This document shows positions 9,770-41,102 of a DNA stretch of 41,106 nt, in pieces. Numbering within the stretch: the first letter of the stretch is position 1; the number at the start of each line of letters is the position of its first letter. Source of the stretch: an archaeon. GTDB lineage: Archaea; Iainarchaeota; Iainarchaeia; Iainarchaeales; 1-14-0-10-31-34. Under the pieces are notes generated by a model, which did not search any database, was not told where the DNA came from, and worked only from the letters and a program-made list of their open reading frames with translations. A program made the translations under genes and the position numbers. The stretch lies in the NCBI GenBank assembly GCA_043819075.1, contig JBDRFE010000059.1:1-41106 (forward strand). The letters run 5' to 3'.

Positions 9770-9943
9770 TGCGGCTAGCGGGAATCGAACCCGCAACTCA
9801 GGCTTATTCCAAAACCCGCTTCCGTGCGGGTGCAACGGTGCGCGGGATAAACCCGCGCTAGCACGACTTTATGTCGTGCGCTGGCGTCAACCGACAGCGG
9901 CGGTTGTTGGGAAGCCTGCATCTTACCACTGGACTATAGCCGC
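9770..9943 (-). tRNA. tRNA-Gly(CCC) with 103-nt intron (9805-9907) at 37/38
   Basis: Acceptor GCGGCTA/TAGCCGC, anticodon stem CAGGC/GCCTG, loop TT-CCC-A|A, T-arm GCGGG TTCGATT CCCGC, BHB central helix TTCC/GGAA. Confidence 0.95.
9861..9906 (-). repeat. 19+8+19 palindrome module, copy A (tRNA-Gly intron)
   Basis: CAACCGCCGCTGTCGGTTG ACGCCAGC GCACGACATAAAGTCGTGC on the minus strand. Confidence 0.85.
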
Positions 9944-9955
9944 CTAAACTATTTT

Positions 9956-11398
9956 TTATTCGTTGTATTTTAAAATCTCTGTTTCATTCCACCCGCATGC
10001 AAAGCTTATTGCGTTTTCTCCGAAAACGCATTCTTTGAAGTATTTCATTGAATAAATTTTATCAAACACCTGTTTTGCTGTAATTTCATCAGTATTCCTT
10101 ACAGCCTTGTCCTCGAAATTGAATACAATAAACCTCAGATTGCTTTCTTCAAAAAACTTTTTGTCGTCATCAGTTTTCTGGTATGTAAGAAACTGTAAAC
10201 TTTCTTTTAAAAAAGATTTTTTTCCCGCGTTCTCAAAATACAGTGAAGTCAAAATCCTTTCATCCAATGCAGTTGAATTCCTTAAGTGCTCTGAAAAACT
10301 TGGTTCAGCTAAAATTGAGCCAGTTTGCGTGAATTCTTCTAAAAACTTCATTGAACTAAAATCCTGTTTTTGCGTGCTAGGATAAAATCCCTGAAAACTC
10401 AAAAAAACAGCTGAAACAAGCAGTATTCCTGCATAAGCCACTGCAAAAATTTTCACTTTGTTATCAAAAACCTTTATACAGCCCAACACAATAATCGAGC
10501 TAAGTGAAAGAAATTTTATCTGCTCCCACACCCTCAGAAAAGGCGTTAAAAAAACTGTTGTTAAAGCAATCAAGCTCATGAAAACAAAGTACTTCCAGTA
10601 AACTGCTTTCTCATTCAAGCCTTTTCTGTAAATAAAATAAATTAACGGAATAATCAGCAGAAAAGTTATCGGCACAGAAAAATAAAATGCCTGCCTGAAA
10701 CTCAAAGAAACAAAGTTTATTGCTAAATTAATGTCATGGTTATACAAAAAGCTTTTTCCGTGAAAAACAAGGTAATAAATTATTACTAACAGCAAGCCAA
10801 TTATTGTGTAAATCAATGCCTTGGTTTTTTTTCTCAAAAAAAATGCCAGCGGAATAAAAGAGCCTAATATAATCAGGTAATTCCATAATAATCCGCTTGA
10901 ATAAATTACTGCCCCTAATTTGCTTTTTTTTTCGTTAAAGAAAAAAATTATTGCAGGCAAAAAAAAGAATACAAAGTTTTCCGGGCTGTCAAAAGCATAA
11001 GCAATAAGAGAAGAAGAAACTGCTGTTAAAAAAGCCGCAAGCAAAGCCTTTTTTTCTCCGGAATATTTTCTCACAAAAACAAAGACTGTTAGGATTGTTA
11101 ACAATGAAATAAACGGCAGTAAAATCATTCCCAGAAAAAAGAATTCAAATCCCGTAAAATAATGAATTATGTTCTGGAATACACTGTATAATGGAGGATA
11201 AATGTTTGCTCTTCCGCCTAAAGTGTCATCCATTGCAGGAATGCTTTTTGTTTCAAAAACTTTTTCCGCTATCCTCTGGTGGTATGGAGCATCATAGCTT
11301 ATTTGCGTGCCGAAAGACATTACTGGCGCAAACCTTAAAACTAATCCAATTAATAGAATGAGGACAAGGAATTTTTTCCAGTCAGTTTTTTCTTTCAT
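9956..11398 (-). CDS. GT-C fold membrane glycosyltransferase (STT3/PMT-like)
   Basis: First TM followed by SYDAPYH and YPPLY, many TMs, soluble C-terminal domain. Confidence 0.7.
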   Translation of the reverse strand: MKEKTDWKKFLVLILLIGLVLRFAPVMSFGTQISYDAPYHQRIAEKVFETKSIPAMDDTLGGRANIYPPLYSVFQNIIHYFTGFEFFFLGMILLPFISLLTILTVFVFVRKYSGEKKALLAAFLTAVSSSLIAYAFDSPENFVFFFLPAIIFFFNEKKSKLGAVIYSSGLLWNYLIILGSFIPLAFFLRKKTKALIYTIIGLLLVIIYYLVFHGKSFLYNHDINLAINFVSLSFRQAFYFSVPITFLLIIPLIYFIYRKGLNEKAVYWKYFVFMSLIALTTVFLTPFLRVWEQIKFLSLSSIIVLGCIKVFDNKVKIFAVAYAGILLVSAVFLSFQGFYPSTQKQDFSSMKFLEEFTQTGSILAEPSFSEHLRNSTALDERILTSLYFENAGKKSFLKESLQFLTYQKTDDDKKFFEESNLRFIVFNFEDKAVRNTDEITAKQVFDKIYSMKYFKECVFGENAISFACGWNETEILKYNE

Positions 11399-12053
11399 TA
11401 GAATTCCTTTTTTCGCCGATTAAAGTAAAAATAAGTTTTCCTTTCTTTTTGTCTAAAACAAAATCTGATTCAGCTAAATCAAACCTGAGCGCTTTGCCTG
11501 GTTCCGGGTATTTTGCGTTTATTATATCAACATTAAACTTAAGCCCTGTCCCTTGTTCATAAAACACTCTTTTCAAGTCGTTAAAGGTTATTCTCCTTTT
11601 TCTGCAGTATTTTATGATTCTCCTGAATTCTGATACAGTCAGCCGGTCTTTTTCGTAAATCCTTTCTGTTTCTGGCACTCTCTCTGCTATTTCAAGTGCA
11701 GCTAAAGCCTGTTCTAGTGTAGGCCTTTGAAGGAGTTTTGCAATTCTTTTTTCTTTAAAGGATTTCGGCACCAAAAGCCTGTATTCTGGCGCAGAAATTA
11801 CTTTTTTTCTTCTGGAAATTTTATGAAGTGCTCTAAGTTTTTTTGTTTCATGAATAGTTGGTTTTCTGAAATCAGTTGTTCCATGAATTCCCTGCCATGG
11901 TTTTGCTTTAAAGATTAGTTTTACTCTTTGACTGGGCGTTCCTGTGAATCCGCTTGTTTGAAGCCTTTTTGTTGGCTGAGTAACCTTTTTTGCTTTTCTT
12001 GTTCCAAGCCTTTGCCTTGCAGTTCTTGTTCTTTGAGATAAAATTCTTCTCAT
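11382..12053 (-). CDS. Basic hypothetical protein
   Basis: ATG at 12053 (MRRILSQRTRTARQR); the longer start in the ORF track lies inside the tRNA. Confidence 0.65.
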   Translation of the reverse strand: MRRILSQRTRTARQRLGTRKAKKVTQPTKRLQTSGFTGTPSQRVKLIFKAKPWQGIHGTTDFRKPTIHETKKLRALHKISRRKKVISAPEYRLLVPKSFKEKRIAKLLQRPTLEQALAALEIAERVPETERIYEKDRLTVSEFRRIIKYCRKRRITFNDLKRVFYEQGTGLKFNVDIINAKYPEPGKALRFDLAESDFVLDKKKGKLIFTLIGEKRNSNERKN

Positions 12054-12075
12054 TTTTTTTCCCTTCTTTTTTTTT

Positions 12076-12175
12076 CGCAGGGAGTGAGATTTGAACTCAC
12101 GCGTGCAAAGCACAGCGCGTTACTCTATTTTTCTGCTCGAGCGCGCCCCGTTTGGCCTGACTCCGGCACCCCTGC
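12076..12175 (-). tRNA. tRNA-Ser(CGA) with 15-nt intron (12121-12135)
   Basis: Acceptor GCAGGGG/TCCCTGC, G73, anticodon stem GCGCG/CGCGC, loop CT-CGA-G|A, variable arm GTGC-TTT-GCAC, T-arm GTGAG TTCAAAT CTCAC. Confidence 0.9.
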
Positions 12176-13081
12176 CAAAGATTCTAATTTCTTTTTCTTG
12201 TTAGAATGATTAAAGCTAATTAATTTTAAATAGTTTCTTATTCTGTCTTTTTTTCTTATTTCTAATAAATAATTGGTATTCCAGTTTTTTTGTTTTCTTT
12301 CATATTTATATATTTTGGATGTTTCAATTCCTAAACTCTCTAACATAAGCTTTATGCCATATAACCCTGTTTTGTTAACTGATTGTAGCTGAATTTTGTC
12401 TTTTCCAACATGGGCTTCACAGTCAAAGAAAGCCCTTAACCACTCAGCTTTCATGCTTTTTGTTTTAAGAAACTCAAAAGGAACCGCCCATTCATGGGTT
12501 CCAAATTTTGTTATTTTTGTTAAATCAAAATAAGCTACTTTGTGGCTGCCTTTCATTACATAGAACTTATGAATTTTGTGTTTTATTATATTAAATTTTT
12601 TGCCATAAAGTTCAAAAAAAGCGTAATTAAAGCTTTCAGCCATCTTAAAATCATCAGGATAAAAACCAATATCATATCTAAAGCTATTTGGTGATGAACC
12701 TGTTCTTTTGAATATTGTTCCGTCTCCTGCCAGATAGCCACAAATTCTGGCTTTTAGTTTTAAATAGTGTTCAGTATTTTTCTTTTCTAATTCATTTCTC
12801 AATTTTGCCAGTTTTTTATTCCACCTATCCCGATTTGCCCAAAACTCTTCAAGATATTCTGCTTTTGCTAAAAAATAATTTTGTTTCTTTTTTGGAATAA
12901 AACCCAGAAGTTCTTCAAATAATTTTTTTGGAAAAGTTCTTCTGTTATATTTAATGTCTTTTATAGTCCATCTGCTGTATGAAGTCTTATCAGCTAGTTT
13001 TGTCCAACTTTTAAATTTTTCTGATTTACTAATTAATTCAAAAAATTCATCTAAAACACGTTTTACTAATTTAACTCTCAC
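12125..13081 (-). CDS. Free-standing two-motif LAGLIDADG endonuclease-like protein with N-terminal HTH
   Basis: ICGYLAGDG and WLRAFFDCEA motifs; no intein splicing ends; stop codon lies inside the tRNA intron. Confidence 0.9.
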   Translation of the reverse strand: MRVKLVKRVLDEFFELISKSEKFKSWTKLADKTSYSRWTIKDIKYNRRTFPKKLFEELLGFIPKKKQNYFLAKAEYLEEFWANRDRWNKKLAKLRNELEKKNTEHYLKLKARICGYLAGDGTIFKRTGSSPNSFRYDIGFYPDDFKMAESFNYAFFELYGKKFNIIKHKIHKFYVMKGSHKVAYFDLTKITKFGTHEWAVPFEFLKTKSMKAEWLRAFFDCEAHVGKDKIQLQSVNKTGLYGIKLMLESLGIETSKIYKYERKQKNWNTNYLLEIRKKDRIRNYLKLISFNHSNKKKKLESLAGVPESGQTGRARAEK

Positions 13082-13148
13082 ATTATCGCATATTATTGCT
13101 GTTTTTTATGTTTTAAAAGGATTTTCAGGCTGCACTGCCTCTGATTGC

Positions 13149-14273
13149 CTAGTTTTTTGCTTTTGCTGGCTGTTTTTTGCCAGAATTCTCTTTTTTTGCT
13201 TTAGCTATTTCAAATAATTTCTGCATTTCCTTTCTTTCAATTACTCCAGAAATTTTTCCTTTTTTTTGGACTGCAATTAATTCATAGTTTGTTGCCATAA
13301 ACAATTCCATTGCTTTTTCTGCTTTAGCTTCATCTGGAATAACATGCATTTCAGCTGAAGCATCAAAAGCCTTTATTTCAGCCCAATTGCCTTTCTTCAC
13401 TTTCTTCATTAACTCCAAGTCAATGTATTTCAAGGCATTTTTTTGCTTTAATAAAAAGCTGAACCTGTTTTCTTTTTCCATTAAATCAAATAATTCTTTT
13501 AATGAAAGATTTTTTTTCAGCAAAGGAATTTTTTTGCTGGTTATTTTTTTTACATCAATTCCGTCTAAAACATCTTTCATCTGCTGTAAGTCGTTTTCGT
13601 ATTTTGAGGCAAAATAAATAAAGACTGCAATTACAGACAATAAGATTCCGCCTGAAAAGATTCCTGCAATAAACAAAATTAATGCAACTAATTTGCTTAT
13701 TTTTGCCACAAAAGCTGTTGCCTTTGTTTTCCCGAACTTTAATGACAAAAGAGAACGCCAGACTCTTCCCCCATCCAATGGAAGCGCCGGCACCAGCAAA
13801 TTGAATGTTCCAAGCATTAGGTTAACATACATTAAAGCAAAAACAGGGTAATTCATTAAAGCAGAATTAATGTTTCCTGTTATTTCTGTTTGAGTTGGAA
13901 AAGGAATGAAGTCAAGCAATGAAACAATGAATACAAGAACTATTACTACCGCAAAATTGAATAATGGCCCTGCAACAGAAATCAGGAACTCGTCTATTGG
14001 TTTTTCAGGAAAGTTTTCTGTTAAAGCCATTCCTCCGATTGGAAGCAGAATAATTTTTTTTACTTTAATTCCTTTTTTGATTGAAACCATTGAATGCGTT
14101 AGTTCATGAAAGAAAACCGAGGTAAACAAAAAAACAATTAAGGTAATGCTTCCAATCAGGTTAATCGGGTCAAATAATGCCAGCAGTAAAACAATGAATG
14201 CAATGAATAACACAAAAGTTGAATGCAGTTCTATTTCTATTCCAGAAATTCTCCCGATATTAAAGGATTTCAT
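13149..14273 (-). CDS. Site-2 protease (M50) with degenerate CBS domains
   Basis: HELTH, AGPLFN, NLLVPALPLDGG. Confidence 0.92.
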   Translation of the reverse strand: MKSFNIGRISGIEIELHSTFVLFIAFIVLLLALFDPINLIGSITLIVFLFTSVFFHELTHSMVSIKKGIKVKKIILLPIGGMALTENFPEKPIDEFLISVAGPLFNFAVVIVLVFIVSLLDFIPFPTQTEITGNINSALMNYPVFALMYVNLMLGTFNLLVPALPLDGGRVWRSLLSLKFGKTKATAFVAKISKLVALILFIAGIFSGGILLSVIAVFIYFASKYENDLQQMKDVLDGIDVKKITSKKIPLLKKNLSLKELFDLMEKENRFSFLLKQKNALKYIDLELMKKVKKGNWAEIKAFDASAEMHVIPDEAKAEKAMELFMATNYELIAVQKKGKISGVIERKEMQKLFEIAKAKKENSGKKQPAKAKN

Positions 14274-27242: not shown

Positions 27243-27390
27243 GGGCCCATAGTGCAATGGTAACACATTCCCTTCGCACCAACTGCCACTGTCAGTTGAC
27301 ACCAGCGCACGACTTCGCTGCGCTCAGTCCTGCTGTAGTTGCTTTATGCGAATCAGGGAAAGACTGCGGGTTCGATTCCCGCTGGGTCCA
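27243..27390 (+). tRNA. tRNA-Ala(CGC) with 76-nt intron (27279-27354)
   Basis: Acceptor GGGCCCA/TGGGTCC with G3:U70, anticodon stem TTCCC/GGGAA, loop TT-CGC-A|A, BHB helix TTCG/CGAA with CAC and TCA bulges. Confidence 0.95.
27280..27325 (+). repeat. Palindrome module, copy B (tRNA-Ala intron; second half degenerate)
   Basis: CAACTGCCACTGTCAGTTG ACACCAGC GCACGACTTCG... Confidence 0.85.
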
Positions 27391-30080: not shown

Positions 30081-30164
30081 GCAGAGGTGGCGGAGTGGTC
30101 TAACGCGCCAGCCTTGAGAGCTGGTATCCGAAAGGATGCGCGAGTTCGAATCTCGTCCTCTGCG
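30081..30164 (+). tRNA. tRNA-Ser(TGA)
   Basis: Acceptor GCAGAGG/CCTCTGC, G73, CCAGC CT-TGA-GA GCTGG, variable arm ATCC-GAAA-GGAT. Confidence 0.96.
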
Positions 30165-36739: not shown

Positions 36740-36823
36740 GCAGAGGTGGCGGAGTGGTCTAACGCGCCAGCCTGGAAAGCTGGTATCCGAAAGGATGCGC
36801 GAGTTCGAATCTCGTCCTCTGCG
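36740..36823 (+). tRNA. tRNA-Ser(GGA)
   Basis: Same body as 30081-30164, with loop CT-GGA-AA. Confidence 0.96.
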
Positions 36824-40281: not shown

Positions 40282-41031
40282 ATGGAGTTCACTGAAAACC
40301 ATGCAGAACTAGTTGGCTTACAGTTCGGTGACGGAAGCCTGATTAGAAGAAAAAAAACAAATAGGGTTAGATTTCAGCTAAGGGGTGATGCAACAAGTGA
40401 CAGAGAACATTATACTGCTTTTATTATCCCTCTTTGTAATGAATTAATTGGTTTCCCTTTGCTTGGCAGAGAAGTTAGAACTGTTTTTGATAGAAATAGG
40501 AATTGTTTTGGAGTTTCAGTTGAAAGCAACACTTTAGTGAATTTTTTTCAAGAACTAGAAGTGAATGTTGGAAAAAAAGAAGAACTTCTGGTTCCTGACT
40601 GGATAAAAAACAATGAAAATTTTTCCAAAGCTTTTATTAGAGGTTTATTTGATACTGATGGAAGTATTTCTTATAAAAAGAACAACACTGCTAAAAGCAA
40701 TCTTCACACAGTAGGAGTTCTAAGCATTGTTTCTACTTCAAAAATTCTTATAACCGATGTTTCGTTTATCCTTTCCCATTTGGGATTAAAACATTATGTT
40801 AGAATACACAAAAAAAGTAACGGAGAAAAAGATGCTTATAGAATAGATATTTATAACCCTTATCTATCAAAGTTTATGTGTGTTATAGGGTCTCATAACC
40901 CAAAACATTTAACCAAATTTGAAATTGCATCAAAATTTGGTTTTTGCCCTCCCTATACAACTCCCATTCAAAGGAAGCAAATTTTAAAAGGTGTTCTTAA
41001 TCCTTTTTCTTTATACGCGGGAGTCCCATAG
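40282..41031 (+). CDS. Free-standing two-motif LAGLIDADG endonuclease-like protein
   Basis: AELVGLQFGDG and FIRGLFDTDG; last codons lie inside tRNA-Leu. Confidence 0.92.
   Translation: MEFTENHAELVGLQFGDGSLIRRKKTNRVRFQLRGDATSDREHYTAFIIPLCNELIGFPLLGREVRTVFDRNRNCFGVSVESNTLVNFFQELEVNVGKKEELLVPDWIKNNENFSKAFIRGLFDTDGSISYKKNNTAKSNLHTVGVLSIVSTSKILITDVSFILSHLGLKHYVRIHKKSNGEKDAYRIDIYNPYLSKFMCVIGSHNPKHLTKFEIASKFGFCPPYTTPIQRKQILKGVLNPFSLYAGVP
40982..40989 (+). promoter_or_regulatory. Candidate TATA box for tRNA-Leu, inside the LAGLIDADG CDS
   Basis: TTTTAAAA about 30 nt upstream of tRNA +1, preceded by purine-rich GAAGCAAA. Confidence 0.45.
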
Positions 41032-41102
41032 CCCGGTCAATTGGACTAGCTTGAGGGGCTAGTGACTTAGTGTCTTCGAGAGTTCGAATCTCTCCTCCCG
41101 CA
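41017..41102 (+). tRNA. tRNA-Leu(GAG)
   Basis: Acceptor GCGGGAG/CTCCCGC, A73, CTAGC TT-GAG-GG GCTAG, variable arm, T-arm GAGAG TTCGAAT CTCTC. Confidence 0.95.

Follow-up and report, generated by a model that had tools for sequence, protein, structure and literature searches.

A LAGLIDADG endonuclease gene that borrows its stop codon from tRNA-Ser in an archaeon of the order Iainarchaeales

How can a protein gene run into a tRNA gene on the same strand, end on a stop codon inside it, and still leave the tRNA whole? This question is raised by a 41,106-nt contig (JBDRFE010000059.1 of assembly GCA_043819075.1; hereafter, the window) from a tiny groundwater archaeon, in which an open reading frame (ORF) for a LAGLIDADG endonuclease enters the gene for tRNA-Ser(CGA) (Table 1). 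The ORF appears, from sequence comparisons, to belong to a large natural family that parks at the outer edge of tRNA genes and takes from the tRNA sequence half of its landing site and its stop codon.

The tRNA gene was missed by ARAGORN at default settings and by a whole-window Rfam search at the gathering threshold, and was found only when introns were allowed (ARAGORN) or when Rfam was run over a short range. The Rfam tRNA model then matched the whole gene at 34.1 bits, above its gathering score of 29, and left 19 nt of the anticodon loop unaligned, 15 nt beyond the model's four positions there. A tRNA-Ser covariance model built in this study (R1) scored 60.1 bits over the full length. We placed the intron at gene positions 41-55 (12135-12121), the canonical site after tRNA position 37; ARAGORN, using another register (i(39,15)), called the gene tRNA-Thr(cgt). 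We prefer the class II tRNA-Ser(CGA) assignment because the gene has a long variable arm, discriminator G73, and a CUC/GAG helix with a UAA 3' bulge beside the anticodon stem, and because of its syntenic orthologues. Two of these (G001, G002) are intronless Ser(cga) genes, two (G003, G007 (L147)) are Ser(cga) genes with an intron, and the G004 orthologue, which bears an intron, was recognised by eye and by its match to R1. The gene is also the sole serine candidate with a CGA anticodon in the ARAGORN list for the genome.

Table 1 Features of the locus in window coordinates.
Feature	Position	Strand	Details
223-aa ORF	11382..12053	-	begins 22 nt past the tRNA 3' end; strain-variable
tRNA-Ser(CGA) gene	12076..12175	-	5' exon 12136-12175, 15-nt intron 12121-12135, 3' exon 12076-12120
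Endonuclease ORF	12125..13081	-	318 aa, GTG start, TAG stop 12125-12127 included
Same-strand overlap of ORF and tRNA gene	12125..12175	-	51 nt, 16 tail codons plus TAG
Double LAGLIDADG core	12176..12772	-	aa 104-302
TATTTAAAA, candidate embedded tRNA promoter	12224..12232	-	in coding sequence, codons Y-L-K, 48 nt before tRNA +1
Motif 2 (..FFDCEAH), E222 codon	12416-12418	-	
Motif 1 (..GYLAGDG), D120 codon	12722-12724	-	
N-terminal helical domain	12782..13081	-	aa 1-100; AF2 pLDDT 92.5
TTTTAAAA, promoter-like box	13111..13118	-	29 nt ahead of the endonuclease GTG start

Direct reading of the sequence bears out the initial annotation, according to which the ORF has no stop ahead of the tRNA, the 5' exon of the tRNA encodes its tail and the 15-nt intron contains its TAG. 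The first base of the tRNA is the first base of codon 303 (GCA), tRNA gene positions 1-48 encode the tail, which the ORF listing ends as ...KKLESLAGVPESGQTGRARAEK*, and the TAG occupies positions 49-51, within the intron in either the canonical or the ARAGORN register. Confidence in the predicted structure is low along this tail (aa 303-318; AF2 pLDDT 76 down to 54). The annotation had warned that a sequencing error before 12175 might hide a stop, and none is hidden: contigs assembled by Logan from run X2, which belongs to another study, span the junction (12138-12397) without a single difference, and those of run X1, which may be the source sample, cover 12055-13300 with one substitution (13177, outside the ORF) and no indels, ruling out an error of sequencing or assembly. 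None of the sequencing runs listed as containing the stretch is an RNA run.

As the annotation had also held, the gene lies outside any intein or intron. It is flanked by the stop of an M50 peptidase gene (13149) on one side and by a complete tRNA on the other, the ORF listing has no host ORF in frame around it, and an Rfam search of 11900-13300 (E ≤ 1) returned only the tRNA and one weak, chance-level match to a plastid UTR (E 0.24). These results rule out a group I intron, a BHB intron or an intein as its host. Past the tRNA 3' end, contigs of runs X1 and X4 depart from the window sequence below 12055, and the 223-aa ORF there has no Pfam family, and a search of a further 150 genomes from the order gave no relative of it; we left it out of the element, to which it probably does not belong.

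The ORF product is a monomeric double-motif LAGLIDADG homing endonuclease resembling I-DmoI, free-standing and probably active, as judged from its sequence and its AF2 model (pLDDT 94.7). Pfam LAGLIDADG_3 (PF14528) matched aa 210-288 (E 6e-14; 52.5 bits against a cut-off of 22.5), and the model contains the pseudo-symmetric alpha-beta-beta-alpha-beta-beta-alpha fold twice. The best Foldseek matches were PI-PfuI (E 1.7e-10), the TliVMA intein endonuclease and I-DmoI, the last with a TM score of 0.77-0.80 normalised to I-DmoI. Each of the two LAGLIDADG helices ends in a catalytic acidic residue, D120 in the first and E222 in the second. Among 54 aligned sequences, G119, D120, G121 and D220 do not vary at all, and E222 is nearly invariant (at least 90%). 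Ahead of the core stands a helical domain that most family members lack. It has no Pfam family (best bHLH_INO2, E 0.027, below the cut-off) and no Foldseek PDB match at E ≤ 0.001; nearly all of its weak matches were Cro/C1-type HTH proteins, so its modelled structure is weakly Cro/C1-HTH-like.

Comparing orthologous loci with and without the ORF, as the annotation had advised, revealed both occupied and empty syntenic alleles in the window's genus. The gene is part of a presence/absence insertion of ~1 kb between the M50 peptidase gene and the tRNA, occupied in two of six genomes and empty in three. The order M50 peptidase, tRNA-Ser, membrane gene is shared by the occupied loci (G000, the window genome, and G003) and the empty ones (G001, G002 and G004); in G005 the tRNA is missing from the locus. 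Occupied and empty alleles resemble each other from tRNA +1 onward; in the empty G002 allele the tRNA begins 15 nt past the M50 stop. A second family (G151) has two occupied genomes and at least eight with a tRNA-Ser(CGA) gene and no endonuclease gene. The non-tRNA half of the presumed target differs among empty alleles, and the true cut site could, from the sequences, lie inside the tRNA or elsewhere. The G003 copy, which starts with ATG where the window ORF has GTG, is frameshifted in an A-run, and the frame is broken inside the match in at least 10 of 87 family loci. Degenerate copies of this kind fit the cycle of invasion, decay and loss of a homing element; assembly errors may lie behind them.

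These 87 loci are the close relatives of the gene, all in DPANN archaea; 79 have enough downstream sequence to be assessed and eight are cut by contig ends. A tRNA-Ser gene begins at the end of the ORF in 77 of the 79, adjacency being defined as a same-strand tRNA-Ser model match starting -45 to +97 nt from the end of the tblastn match; at one of these 77 loci the tRNA-Ser lies at +268, behind an insertion. Of the two relatives without a tRNA-Ser match, one (L097) is followed by what looks by eye to be a multi-intron Ser(GGA) gene. With 77 of 79 relatives showing it, the adjacency is not due to chance, and the homologues without association to tRNA 5' ends that would have spoken against the annotation did not materialise, although here and below all family statistics count related sequences as independent. 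Distant LAGLIDADG relatives (L118-L140 except L128 and L129; less than ~35% identity) have an adjacent downstream tRNA-Ser in no case, so the tie is specific to the close family and not a trait of all LAGLIDADG ORFs. An IMG/VR search for viral carriers returned only four distant relatives (23-28% identity).

Within the family, the anticodon motif of the linked tRNA-Ser is CGA in 51 loci, GGA in 18 and TGA in two (n = 71). The genes linked to GGA or TGA form one group in the protein tree, on which the labels need two changes, the minimum. This tree, of 42 cores, groups partly by host phylum, so the family may also have descended vertically for a long time, with losses.

Reading into the tRNA is frequent and yet not universal in the family: the ORF enters the tRNA in 57 of 71 junctions and stops ahead of it in 14, so the borrowed stop is not obligatory. 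Nor is a stop in the intron, which the annotation had presented as a feature of the arrangement, general; it is peculiar to the window's genus, and 29 of the 57 read-in relatives stop instead in the D-loop, at tRNA positions 13-15 (TAA in 28, TAG in one). Of 52 non-identical junctions, 38 have the ORF entering the tRNA in the phase that meets a stop earliest (p 5e-9, with no correction for relatedness). This bias suggests that the stop inside the tRNA is truly used and that a co-transcript of ORF and tRNA is translated.

The locus contains two promoter-like boxes. The box ahead of the endonuclease gene (TTTTAAAA) has the spacing that, by eye, the same box has to tRNA +1 at several other tRNAs of the genome (24-29 nt); it is kept in G003, and the empty G002 allele has none in its spacer of 15 nt. 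The second, within the 3' end of the ORF, is a candidate promoter for the tRNA on sequence grounds, although it lies ~20 nt farther from the tRNA than the genome's usual tRNA promoters. Across 60 loci, TATA-like heptamers cluster at -70..-41 (41 matches; other 10-nt bins hold 0-10, mostly 0-4). A hydrophobic-Leu-Lys motif is common at the end of LAGLIDADG domains generally and coincides with this TATA-like box. The Leu codon in the box is TTA in 25 of 31 cases, compared with 23 of 69 context-matched Leu codons and 6 of 18 codons at a control conserved Leu (Fisher p 1e-5, uncorrected for relatedness); 14 of the 47 non-identical read-in loci fall outside the motif used for this codon test. Because synonymous-codon choice keeps the TATA-like box, the data suggest that the element brings a tRNA promoter with it.

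We propose, as the probable explanation, that the gene represents a mobile homing-endonuclease lineage at the 5' border of tRNA-Ser, whose element ends at tRNA +1, has its stop inside the tRNA and probably re-supplies the promoter. The element of ~1 kb comprises a short promoter-bearing leader and an ORF that reaches tRNA +1 without a stop of its own and is closed by the first stop codon that its frame meets within the tRNA gene, in the intron here and in the D-loop in most relatives. The enzyme would recognise a site across the junction between upstream sequence and tRNA, chiefly on the conserved tRNA side, and cut alleles without the gene, into which repair would then copy it. The tRNA would be left uninterrupted by the insertion, which could be tolerated if, as is probable, the TATA box in the last ~20 codons re-supplies the tRNA promoter. 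Termination would need a transcript that continues into the tRNA, and an RNase P cut at +1 would leave a message without a stop. Our observations establish the anatomy, the fold with its catalytic residues, the adjacency across the family, the presence/absence polymorphism, the codon constraint on the TATA-like box and the phase bias; that the enzyme cuts and homes, that the box serves as a promoter and what becomes of the transcript are what we infer in this scheme.

The last of these steps is close to the reading of the initial annotation, that the gene sits in a pre-tRNA leader and that maturation, by RNase P or splicing, strips its stop codon and thereby throttles or couples endonuclease output. 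The position of the stop agrees with it: the stop lies downstream of the RNase P cleavage site, as it does in 57 of 71 junctions of the family, and the window genome encodes both RNase P RNA and a tRNA-intron endonuclease (EndA). The phase bias implies translation of unprocessed co-transcripts, and with the tRNA of G002 so near the M50 stop, co-transcription of mRNA and tRNA may be native to the locus. On these sequence features, a coupling of endonuclease output to tRNA processing is plausible; as a selected function we consider it unlikely. The stop in the intron is confined to one genus, and 14 junctions have a stop of their own. The ORF is indeed directly 5' of the tRNA, but its status as leader is uncertain: the TATA-like box inside it would give the tRNA a separate transcript, and counted from that box the tRNA's own leader would be only ~27 nt.

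Relatives at other tRNAs bear on the same point. Using an alignment of the N-terminal domain (A5), followed by a genome search and reading of context, we found that ORFs with this domain adjoin genes for tRNA-Thr, Ala, Val, Pro and Arg. Ten of them run antisense into convergent tRNA-Thr genes, where processing cannot strip a stop and no such coupling is possible; running into a tRNA is therefore first of all a geometry of insertion. A wider proposal, which we put forward tentatively and would sooner doubt than hold, is a DPANN superfamily of tRNA-border endonucleases, mostly LAGLIDADG, in which many members would have the HTH-like N-terminal domain in common and use it for targeting. Every subfamily would be tied to one tRNA identity, with a borrowed stop and a replacement promoter in the last codons; translation would compete with RNase P on the same precursor, and the unusually many introns in the tRNA genes of these archaea would in part be scars or shields of an arms race.

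Introns figure more directly in another explanation, in which the enzyme cuts intron-less tRNA-Ser genes, for example at the intron site, and linked, co-inherited introns protect the carrier, as in collaborative homing. Both occupied alleles of the genus have a 14/15-nt intron and the empty G001 and G002 alleles have none, and 55 of the 71 linked tRNA-Ser genes exceed 90 nt, many with several non-canonical introns. We nevertheless judge this explanation distinctly improbable: the other 16 linked tRNAs are intronless, G004 has the intron and no endonuclease gene, the G151 family is intronless in occupied and empty alleles alike, and in these genomes introns are in any case frequent in tRNA genes (the window genome has them in 20 of its 45 ARAGORN calls). 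That the protein is a domesticated, non-mobile LAGLIDADG derivative that binds DNA and regulates or marks tRNA-Ser under vertical inheritance, an analogue of WhiA, is very improbable, for although WhiA structures are among the Foldseek matches, the N-terminal domain is HTH-like, position and orientation are constant across phyla and the tree partly follows host taxa, the catalytic loss that goes with an HTH in WhiA has not occurred (both acidic positions, D120 and E222, are retained, and the extra domain is N-terminal and only weakly HTH-like), the gene is present at the syntenic site in some close relatives and absent from others, some copies are frameshifted or truncated, and most family members have no N-terminal domain.

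A mobile lineage at the tRNA border would have consequences beyond this locus. Homing endonucleases are known to do their hosts little harm by residing in introns or inteins that splice themselves out, and our findings point to an undescribed route by which mobile genes settle on tRNA genes without breaking them. If true, this would be a new safe-harbour strategy for selfish genes and would provide LAGLIDADG enzymes that nature has directed at tRNA genes, useful as scaffolds for engineered nucleases. It would also supply an example of something rare in cellular genomes, a protein gene and a tRNA gene that overlap on the same strand, and would connect mobile endonucleases, in a concrete and testable way, with the odd tRNA genes of DPANN archaea and their introns, long leaders and mRNA-tRNA co-transcripts.

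In the main texts of openly accessible papers, we found no description of LAGLIDADG genes flanking tRNAs in archaea; PMC6125680 concerns group I introns in archaeal rRNA genes and not tRNA flanks, and SegB, a phage endonuclease, is named in the abstract of PMC13096335. The closest structural relatives, I-DmoI, PI-PfuI and I-Tsp061I, share the fold and the two-motif architecture (Foldseek E 1.7e-10 to 1e-7) and have archaeal hosts. They are found in rRNA introns or inteins that splice themselves out, unlike the window enzyme, which is free-standing outside the tRNA, with a further domain at its N terminus and a gene that lacks a stop of its own.

The closest parallels in placement come from phages. 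T4 SegB and the T5 F-Tfl enzymes are free-standing endonucleases encoded among or beside tRNA genes, and are believed to spread by cleaving the tRNA region in genomes that lack them; they are GIY-YIG or HNH enzymes in ordinary intergenic positions, and we know of no flush junction with a single tRNA, overlap of ORF and tRNA or one-to-one tie to a tRNA identity among the endonucleases of phage tRNA clusters. In the collaborative homing of F-CphI and psbA in cyanophages, a free-standing endonuclease beside an intron-bearing target cuts a protein-coding gene at the site where the intron inserts; many linked tRNAs of the window family, in contrast, have no intron. Fungal mitochondria harbour in-frame fusions of free-standing LAGLIDADG or GIY-YIG ORFs with host gene ends, in which the mobile ORF and the host gene have sequence in common, and in mitochondrial tRNA punctuation the excision of tRNAs delimits messages and stop codons depend on RNA processing. 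The fungal fusions are to protein-coding genes, whereas the window ORF overlaps the 5' half of a tRNA gene, and does so in a cellular genome, that of an archaeon. Finally, for Ty3, Dictyostelium TRE5 and integrases that target tRNA 3' ends, tRNA genes are safe and conserved landing sites, with insertion just outside the mature tRNA. These elements differ from that of the window in their hosts and entirely in their means: some depend on an integrase or reverse transcriptase that Pol III factors direct to the site, others on recombination at att sites.

The initial annotation described an open reading frame (ORF) that runs without a stop into the adjacent tRNA gene, takes its tail from the tRNA 5′ exon and ends at a TAG in a 15-nt intron, and direct reading of the sequence bears this out: position 12175 is both base 1 of the tRNA and the first base of ORF codon 303 (GCA). 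The tRNA was missed by default ARAGORN and by the whole-window Rfam scan; the Rfam match at 12076–12175 carries an unaligned insert in the anticodon loop, and intron-allowing ARAGORN called it Thr(cgt) i(39,15). Against that call we read the gene as tRNA-Ser(CGA) with a canonical 37/38 intron, because it has a long variable arm and G73, matches our tRNA-Ser covariance model over its full length (60.1 bits), folds at minimum free energy with a CUC/GAG helix and UAA bulge beside the anticodon stem, and has syntenic orthologues called Ser(cga) by ARAGORN in genomes G001, G002, G003 and G007 and identified by eye in G004. The TAG is intronic in either register. A sequencing error hiding an upstream stop, which we looked for, is unlikely, since contigs from another study’s run confirm the junction (12138–12397) with zero differences and comparison with independent contigs reported no indels across 11900–13300. 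Introns of 15–185 nt occur in 20 of 45 ARAGORN tRNA calls in the host genome, including two in the window (genes at 9770–9943 and 27243–27390, with introns of 103 nt and 76–79 nt), and several anticodon assignments of such genes look unreliable.

Features of the ORF–tRNA junction and other intron-bearing tRNA genes in the window
Feature	Coordinates	Strand	Details
Endonuclease ORF	12125–13081	-	318 aa, GTG start, C-terminal end ...KKLESLAGVPESGQTGRARAEK then stop
tRNA-Ser(CGA)	12076–12175	-	Rfam 34.1 bits (gathering score 29)
tRNA intron, 15 nt	12121–12135	-	canonical 37/38 placement
TAG stop of endonuclease ORF	12125–12127	-	within the 15-nt intron
TTTTAAAA box of endonuclease gene	13111–13118	-	29 nt ahead of GTG
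TATTTAAAA box within ORF	12224–12232	-	codons Y-L-K; 48 nt ahead of tRNA
Intron-bearing tRNA gene	9770–9943	-	ARAGORN
Intron-bearing tRNA gene	27243–27390	+	ARAGORN

Comparison of orthologous loci with and without the ORF indicates that the gene is an insertion. Synteny is conserved in the window’s genus, with tRNA-Ser(CGA) between an M50 peptidase gene and a membrane-protein gene; one named metagenome-assembled genome of this genus is labelled Candidatus Iainarchaeum. The endonuclease gene lies between the M50 and tRNA genes in the host genome and in G003, where a frameshift in an A-run splits it. It is absent from G002, where the tRNA starts 15 nt past the M50 stop, from G001, where a GC-rich segment of ~105 nt separates the two, and from G004, where an IS-like gene and a nucleotidyltransferase/HEPN-like pair do so; in G005 the tRNA itself is absent from the locus. 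Similarity between occupied and empty alleles sets in exactly at tRNA +1, and ~65 nt 5′ of the start codon, including the TTTTAAAA box, are common to occupied alleles and absent from G002. In a second family, around the genome holding locus L035, two genomes have the gene and at least eight have tRNA-Ser(CGA) without it.

The intergenic site between M50 and tRNA-Ser(CGA) attracts other insertions too. Judged from its ORF translations, the G004 insert (L026 1–1376 / L148) appears to comprise an IS-type (rve-like) transposase fragment and the nucleotidyltransferase/HEPN-like ORF pair. On the other flank, a basic 223-aa ORF (11382–12053, minus strand) starts 22 nt past the tRNA 3′ end; it has no Pfam family, and a search of 150 further genomes from the order gave no match. 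In two other runs, contigs agree with the window over the endonuclease–tRNA unit but part from it exactly below 12055. This ORF is therefore a strain-variable insertion or marks a recombination breakpoint at the tRNA 3′ flank.

Homologues of the endonuclease are likewise tied to tRNA 5′ ends. Many of the 55 relatives found in a first protein search end in AGMAESG, AGMPER, AGVAQPG or ASVPESG, tails that are the translated 5′ end of a class II tRNA. The wider comparison drew on 29 loci of species-representative genomes and 80 metagenomic loci, with host labels including Iainarchaeota/Diapherotrites, Woesearchaeota, Nanoarchaeota, Micrarchaeota and Pacearchaeota; a search of IMG/VR gave distant relatives only. 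The close family comprises 87 loci (L032–L117 and L129), several of them near-duplicates, and the tRNA-Ser model found a same-strand match in 77, starting -45 to +97 nt from the end of the tblastn match except for one at +268, beyond an insertion in the ORF. Eight further loci end with their contig within 102 nt, and two (L059 and L097) gave no model match, L097 nevertheless containing by eye a multi-intron Ser(GGA)-like gene. The same model found no such adjacency in the distant relatives L118–L140 (except L128 and L129). The reading frame is broken inside the match in at least 10 of the 87 loci.

In one family member, L109 (~1160–1400), a GC-rich insertion of ~200 nt interrupts the endonuclease ORF, after which the frame resumes and tRNA-Ser follows. 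By eye, the adjoining tRNA-Ser genes (L041, L069, L097, L115, L039, L044 and others) often have more than one non-canonical intron, whether in the T-loop, on the anticodon stem’s 5′ side or, possibly, following position 8; L115 and L097 seem to carry a second copy of the tRNA’s first ~9 nt a few nucleotides upstream.

Among 70 loci and the window, a junction script read the anticodon-loop word as CGA in 51, GGA in 18 and TGA in 2. After removal of 29 rows that were short, duplicate or odd, 42 non-identical cores went into a maximum-likelihood tree, which placed the GGA/TGA-linked genes in one group (support 88/87); the labels require two changes, the minimum. Target identity is therefore heritable within the endonuclease lineage.

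The ORF crosses tRNA +1 in 57 of 71 junctions; in the other 14 it stops ahead of the tRNA, at L038 with a TAA immediately before +1. Among the read-in junctions, tRNA +1 is a codon’s first base in 40 and the stop lies at or before tRNA position 24 in 44; in 29 it is the D-loop triplet at positions 13–15 (TAA 28, TAG 1). The intronic stop is peculiar to the window’s genus. In 38 of 52 non-identical junctions the ORF uses whichever of the three phases stops earliest (chance 1/3; binomial p = 5e-9, treating related sequences as independent), a bias that points to a tail that is translated and kept short, and hence to a message extending into the tRNA. The initial annotation was right about where the gene sits, directly 5′ of the tRNA. 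The coupling of endonuclease expression to tRNA processing that it proposed is plausible and indirectly supported by the phase bias, but the arrangement can be explained without it. The host genome encodes RNase P RNA (two matches) and a tRNA-intron endonuclease. Both RNase P RNA matches in this 1.24-Mb assembly, at C70:708–1025 and C41:8672–8942, are archaeal and above threshold, and tRNA-Leu(GAG) at the window’s end (41017–41102) shares its upstream sequence with a copy on contig C41. Duplication of a region, overlap between contigs or a mixed bin could account for this.

The element may also supply a promoter to the tRNA it displaces. By eye, several tRNAs of the host genome have a TTTTAAAA-type box 24–29 nt ahead of +1. 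Across 60 non-identical loci, TATA-like heptamers gave 41 matches at -70 to -41, compared with 0–10 per 10-nt bin (mostly 0–4) elsewhere in the 630 nt upstream. At a conserved [F/Y]-L-[K/N] site, Leu is encoded by TTA in 25 of 31 cases, compared with 23 of 69 context-matched Leu codons in other parts of the ORFs and 6 of 18 at a second conserved Leu position (Fisher p = 1e-5, treating related sequences as independent); this test left out 14 of 47 non-identical read-in loci that do not fit the motif, some with other TATA-like words and some with none. The heptamer pile-up and codon preference together provide moderate evidence that the element encodes a promoter for the displaced tRNA.

Many tRNA genes of the host genome, including tRNA-Ser(UGA) at 30081 and tRNA-Ser(GGA) at 36740 of the window, lack a nearby TATA box and have upstream of them a conserved, GC-rich stretch of ~50–100 nt that forms a hairpin. 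A segment of this kind (L142 ~2600–2700, L026 1598–1740) lies 5′ of tRNA-Ser(CGA) in G001 and 3′ of it in G004. It may act as a structured leader or a processing signal, or may be a small mobile repeat.

By its motifs, modelled fold and catalytic residues the protein is classed as a monomeric LAGLIDADG endonuclease, with cleavage as its predicted activity. Pfam LAGLIDADG_3 matches aa 210–288 (E = 6e-14), and across 54 sequences the motif acidic residues are kept (D120 invariant, E222 at least 90% conserved). An AlphaFold2 model from the 54-sequence alignment has a pLDDT of 94.7, its sole low-confidence part being the tRNA-encoded tail (76 falling to 54), and its best Foldseek matches are PI-PfuI, the TliVMA intein endonuclease and I-DmoI (TM 0.77–0.80, normalised to I-DmoI). 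Residues 1–100 form a separate five-helix domain (pLDDT 92.5 modelled alone) for which we found no Pfam family and Foldseek no significant PDB match. Its weak matches are nearly all Cro/C1-type helix-turn-helix (HTH) proteins with a best E of 0.33, so that of the original HTH-LAGLIDADG label the second half stands and the first is plausible only.

The N-terminal domain, well conserved in alignment, defines a wider superfamily. Used alone as a query, it matched ORFs in 27 of the order’s 151 genomes. In 19 of 28 such loci the ORF terminates within a tRNA gene or no more than 36 nt from one, always with the tRNA on its 3′-end side. Nine of the 19 meet the 5′ end of a same-strand tRNA (ARAGORN: Thr, Ala twice, Val twice, Pro, Arg and two doubtful calls with a GPLAQPGRE tail). 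The other ten (L155, L158, L159, L162–L165, L170, L171 and L175), all HTH-LAGLIDADG ORFs, mirror the window’s arrangement: each enters a convergent tRNA-Thr gene antisense, from its 3′ end, and some span it entirely. Three further loci hold truncated copies whose spacing from a tRNA is what an intact gene would give, four have no tRNA and two run off the contig end. Because tRNA processing can play no part in the antisense cases, reading into the tRNA is first of all a result of how closely these elements are fitted to their target. LAGLIDADG_3 was detected in 18 of 21 proteins scanned. In a 460–530-aa type (L151, L152 and L153), which ends at or in a tRNA 5′ end and has the GPLAQPGRE tail in two cases, no Pfam nuclease domain or family was found; these proteins may be a second enzyme class with the same targeting module. 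Another LAGLIDADG-like ORF of the host genome (311 aa; L003 1204–2139, contig C2) starts ~130 nt downstream of tRNA-Leu(UAA), and two distant metagenomic relatives (L139 and L122) likewise start just past tRNAs, possibly a different, tRNA-3′-flank arrangement with the ORF 5′ end facing the tRNA.

The overlap of ORF and tRNA observed in the window is confirmed and greatly extended by these data. Full-text literature searches found no description of such tRNA-bordering elements, and PMC6125680, on group I introns in archaeal rRNA genes, gave none; the abstract of PMC13096335 names SegB. In contrast to described cases, the window’s gene lies outside any intron or intein, as initially noted, is flush with one specific tRNA, has a same-strand overlap with that gene, which also provides its stop codon, and probably carries a promoter embedded in its coding sequence. 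Systems that invite comparison are SegB, F-CphI, fungal mitochondrial fusions, Ty3/TRE5 and mitochondrial tRNA punctuation. It is in niche and anatomy that the element differs from described cases.
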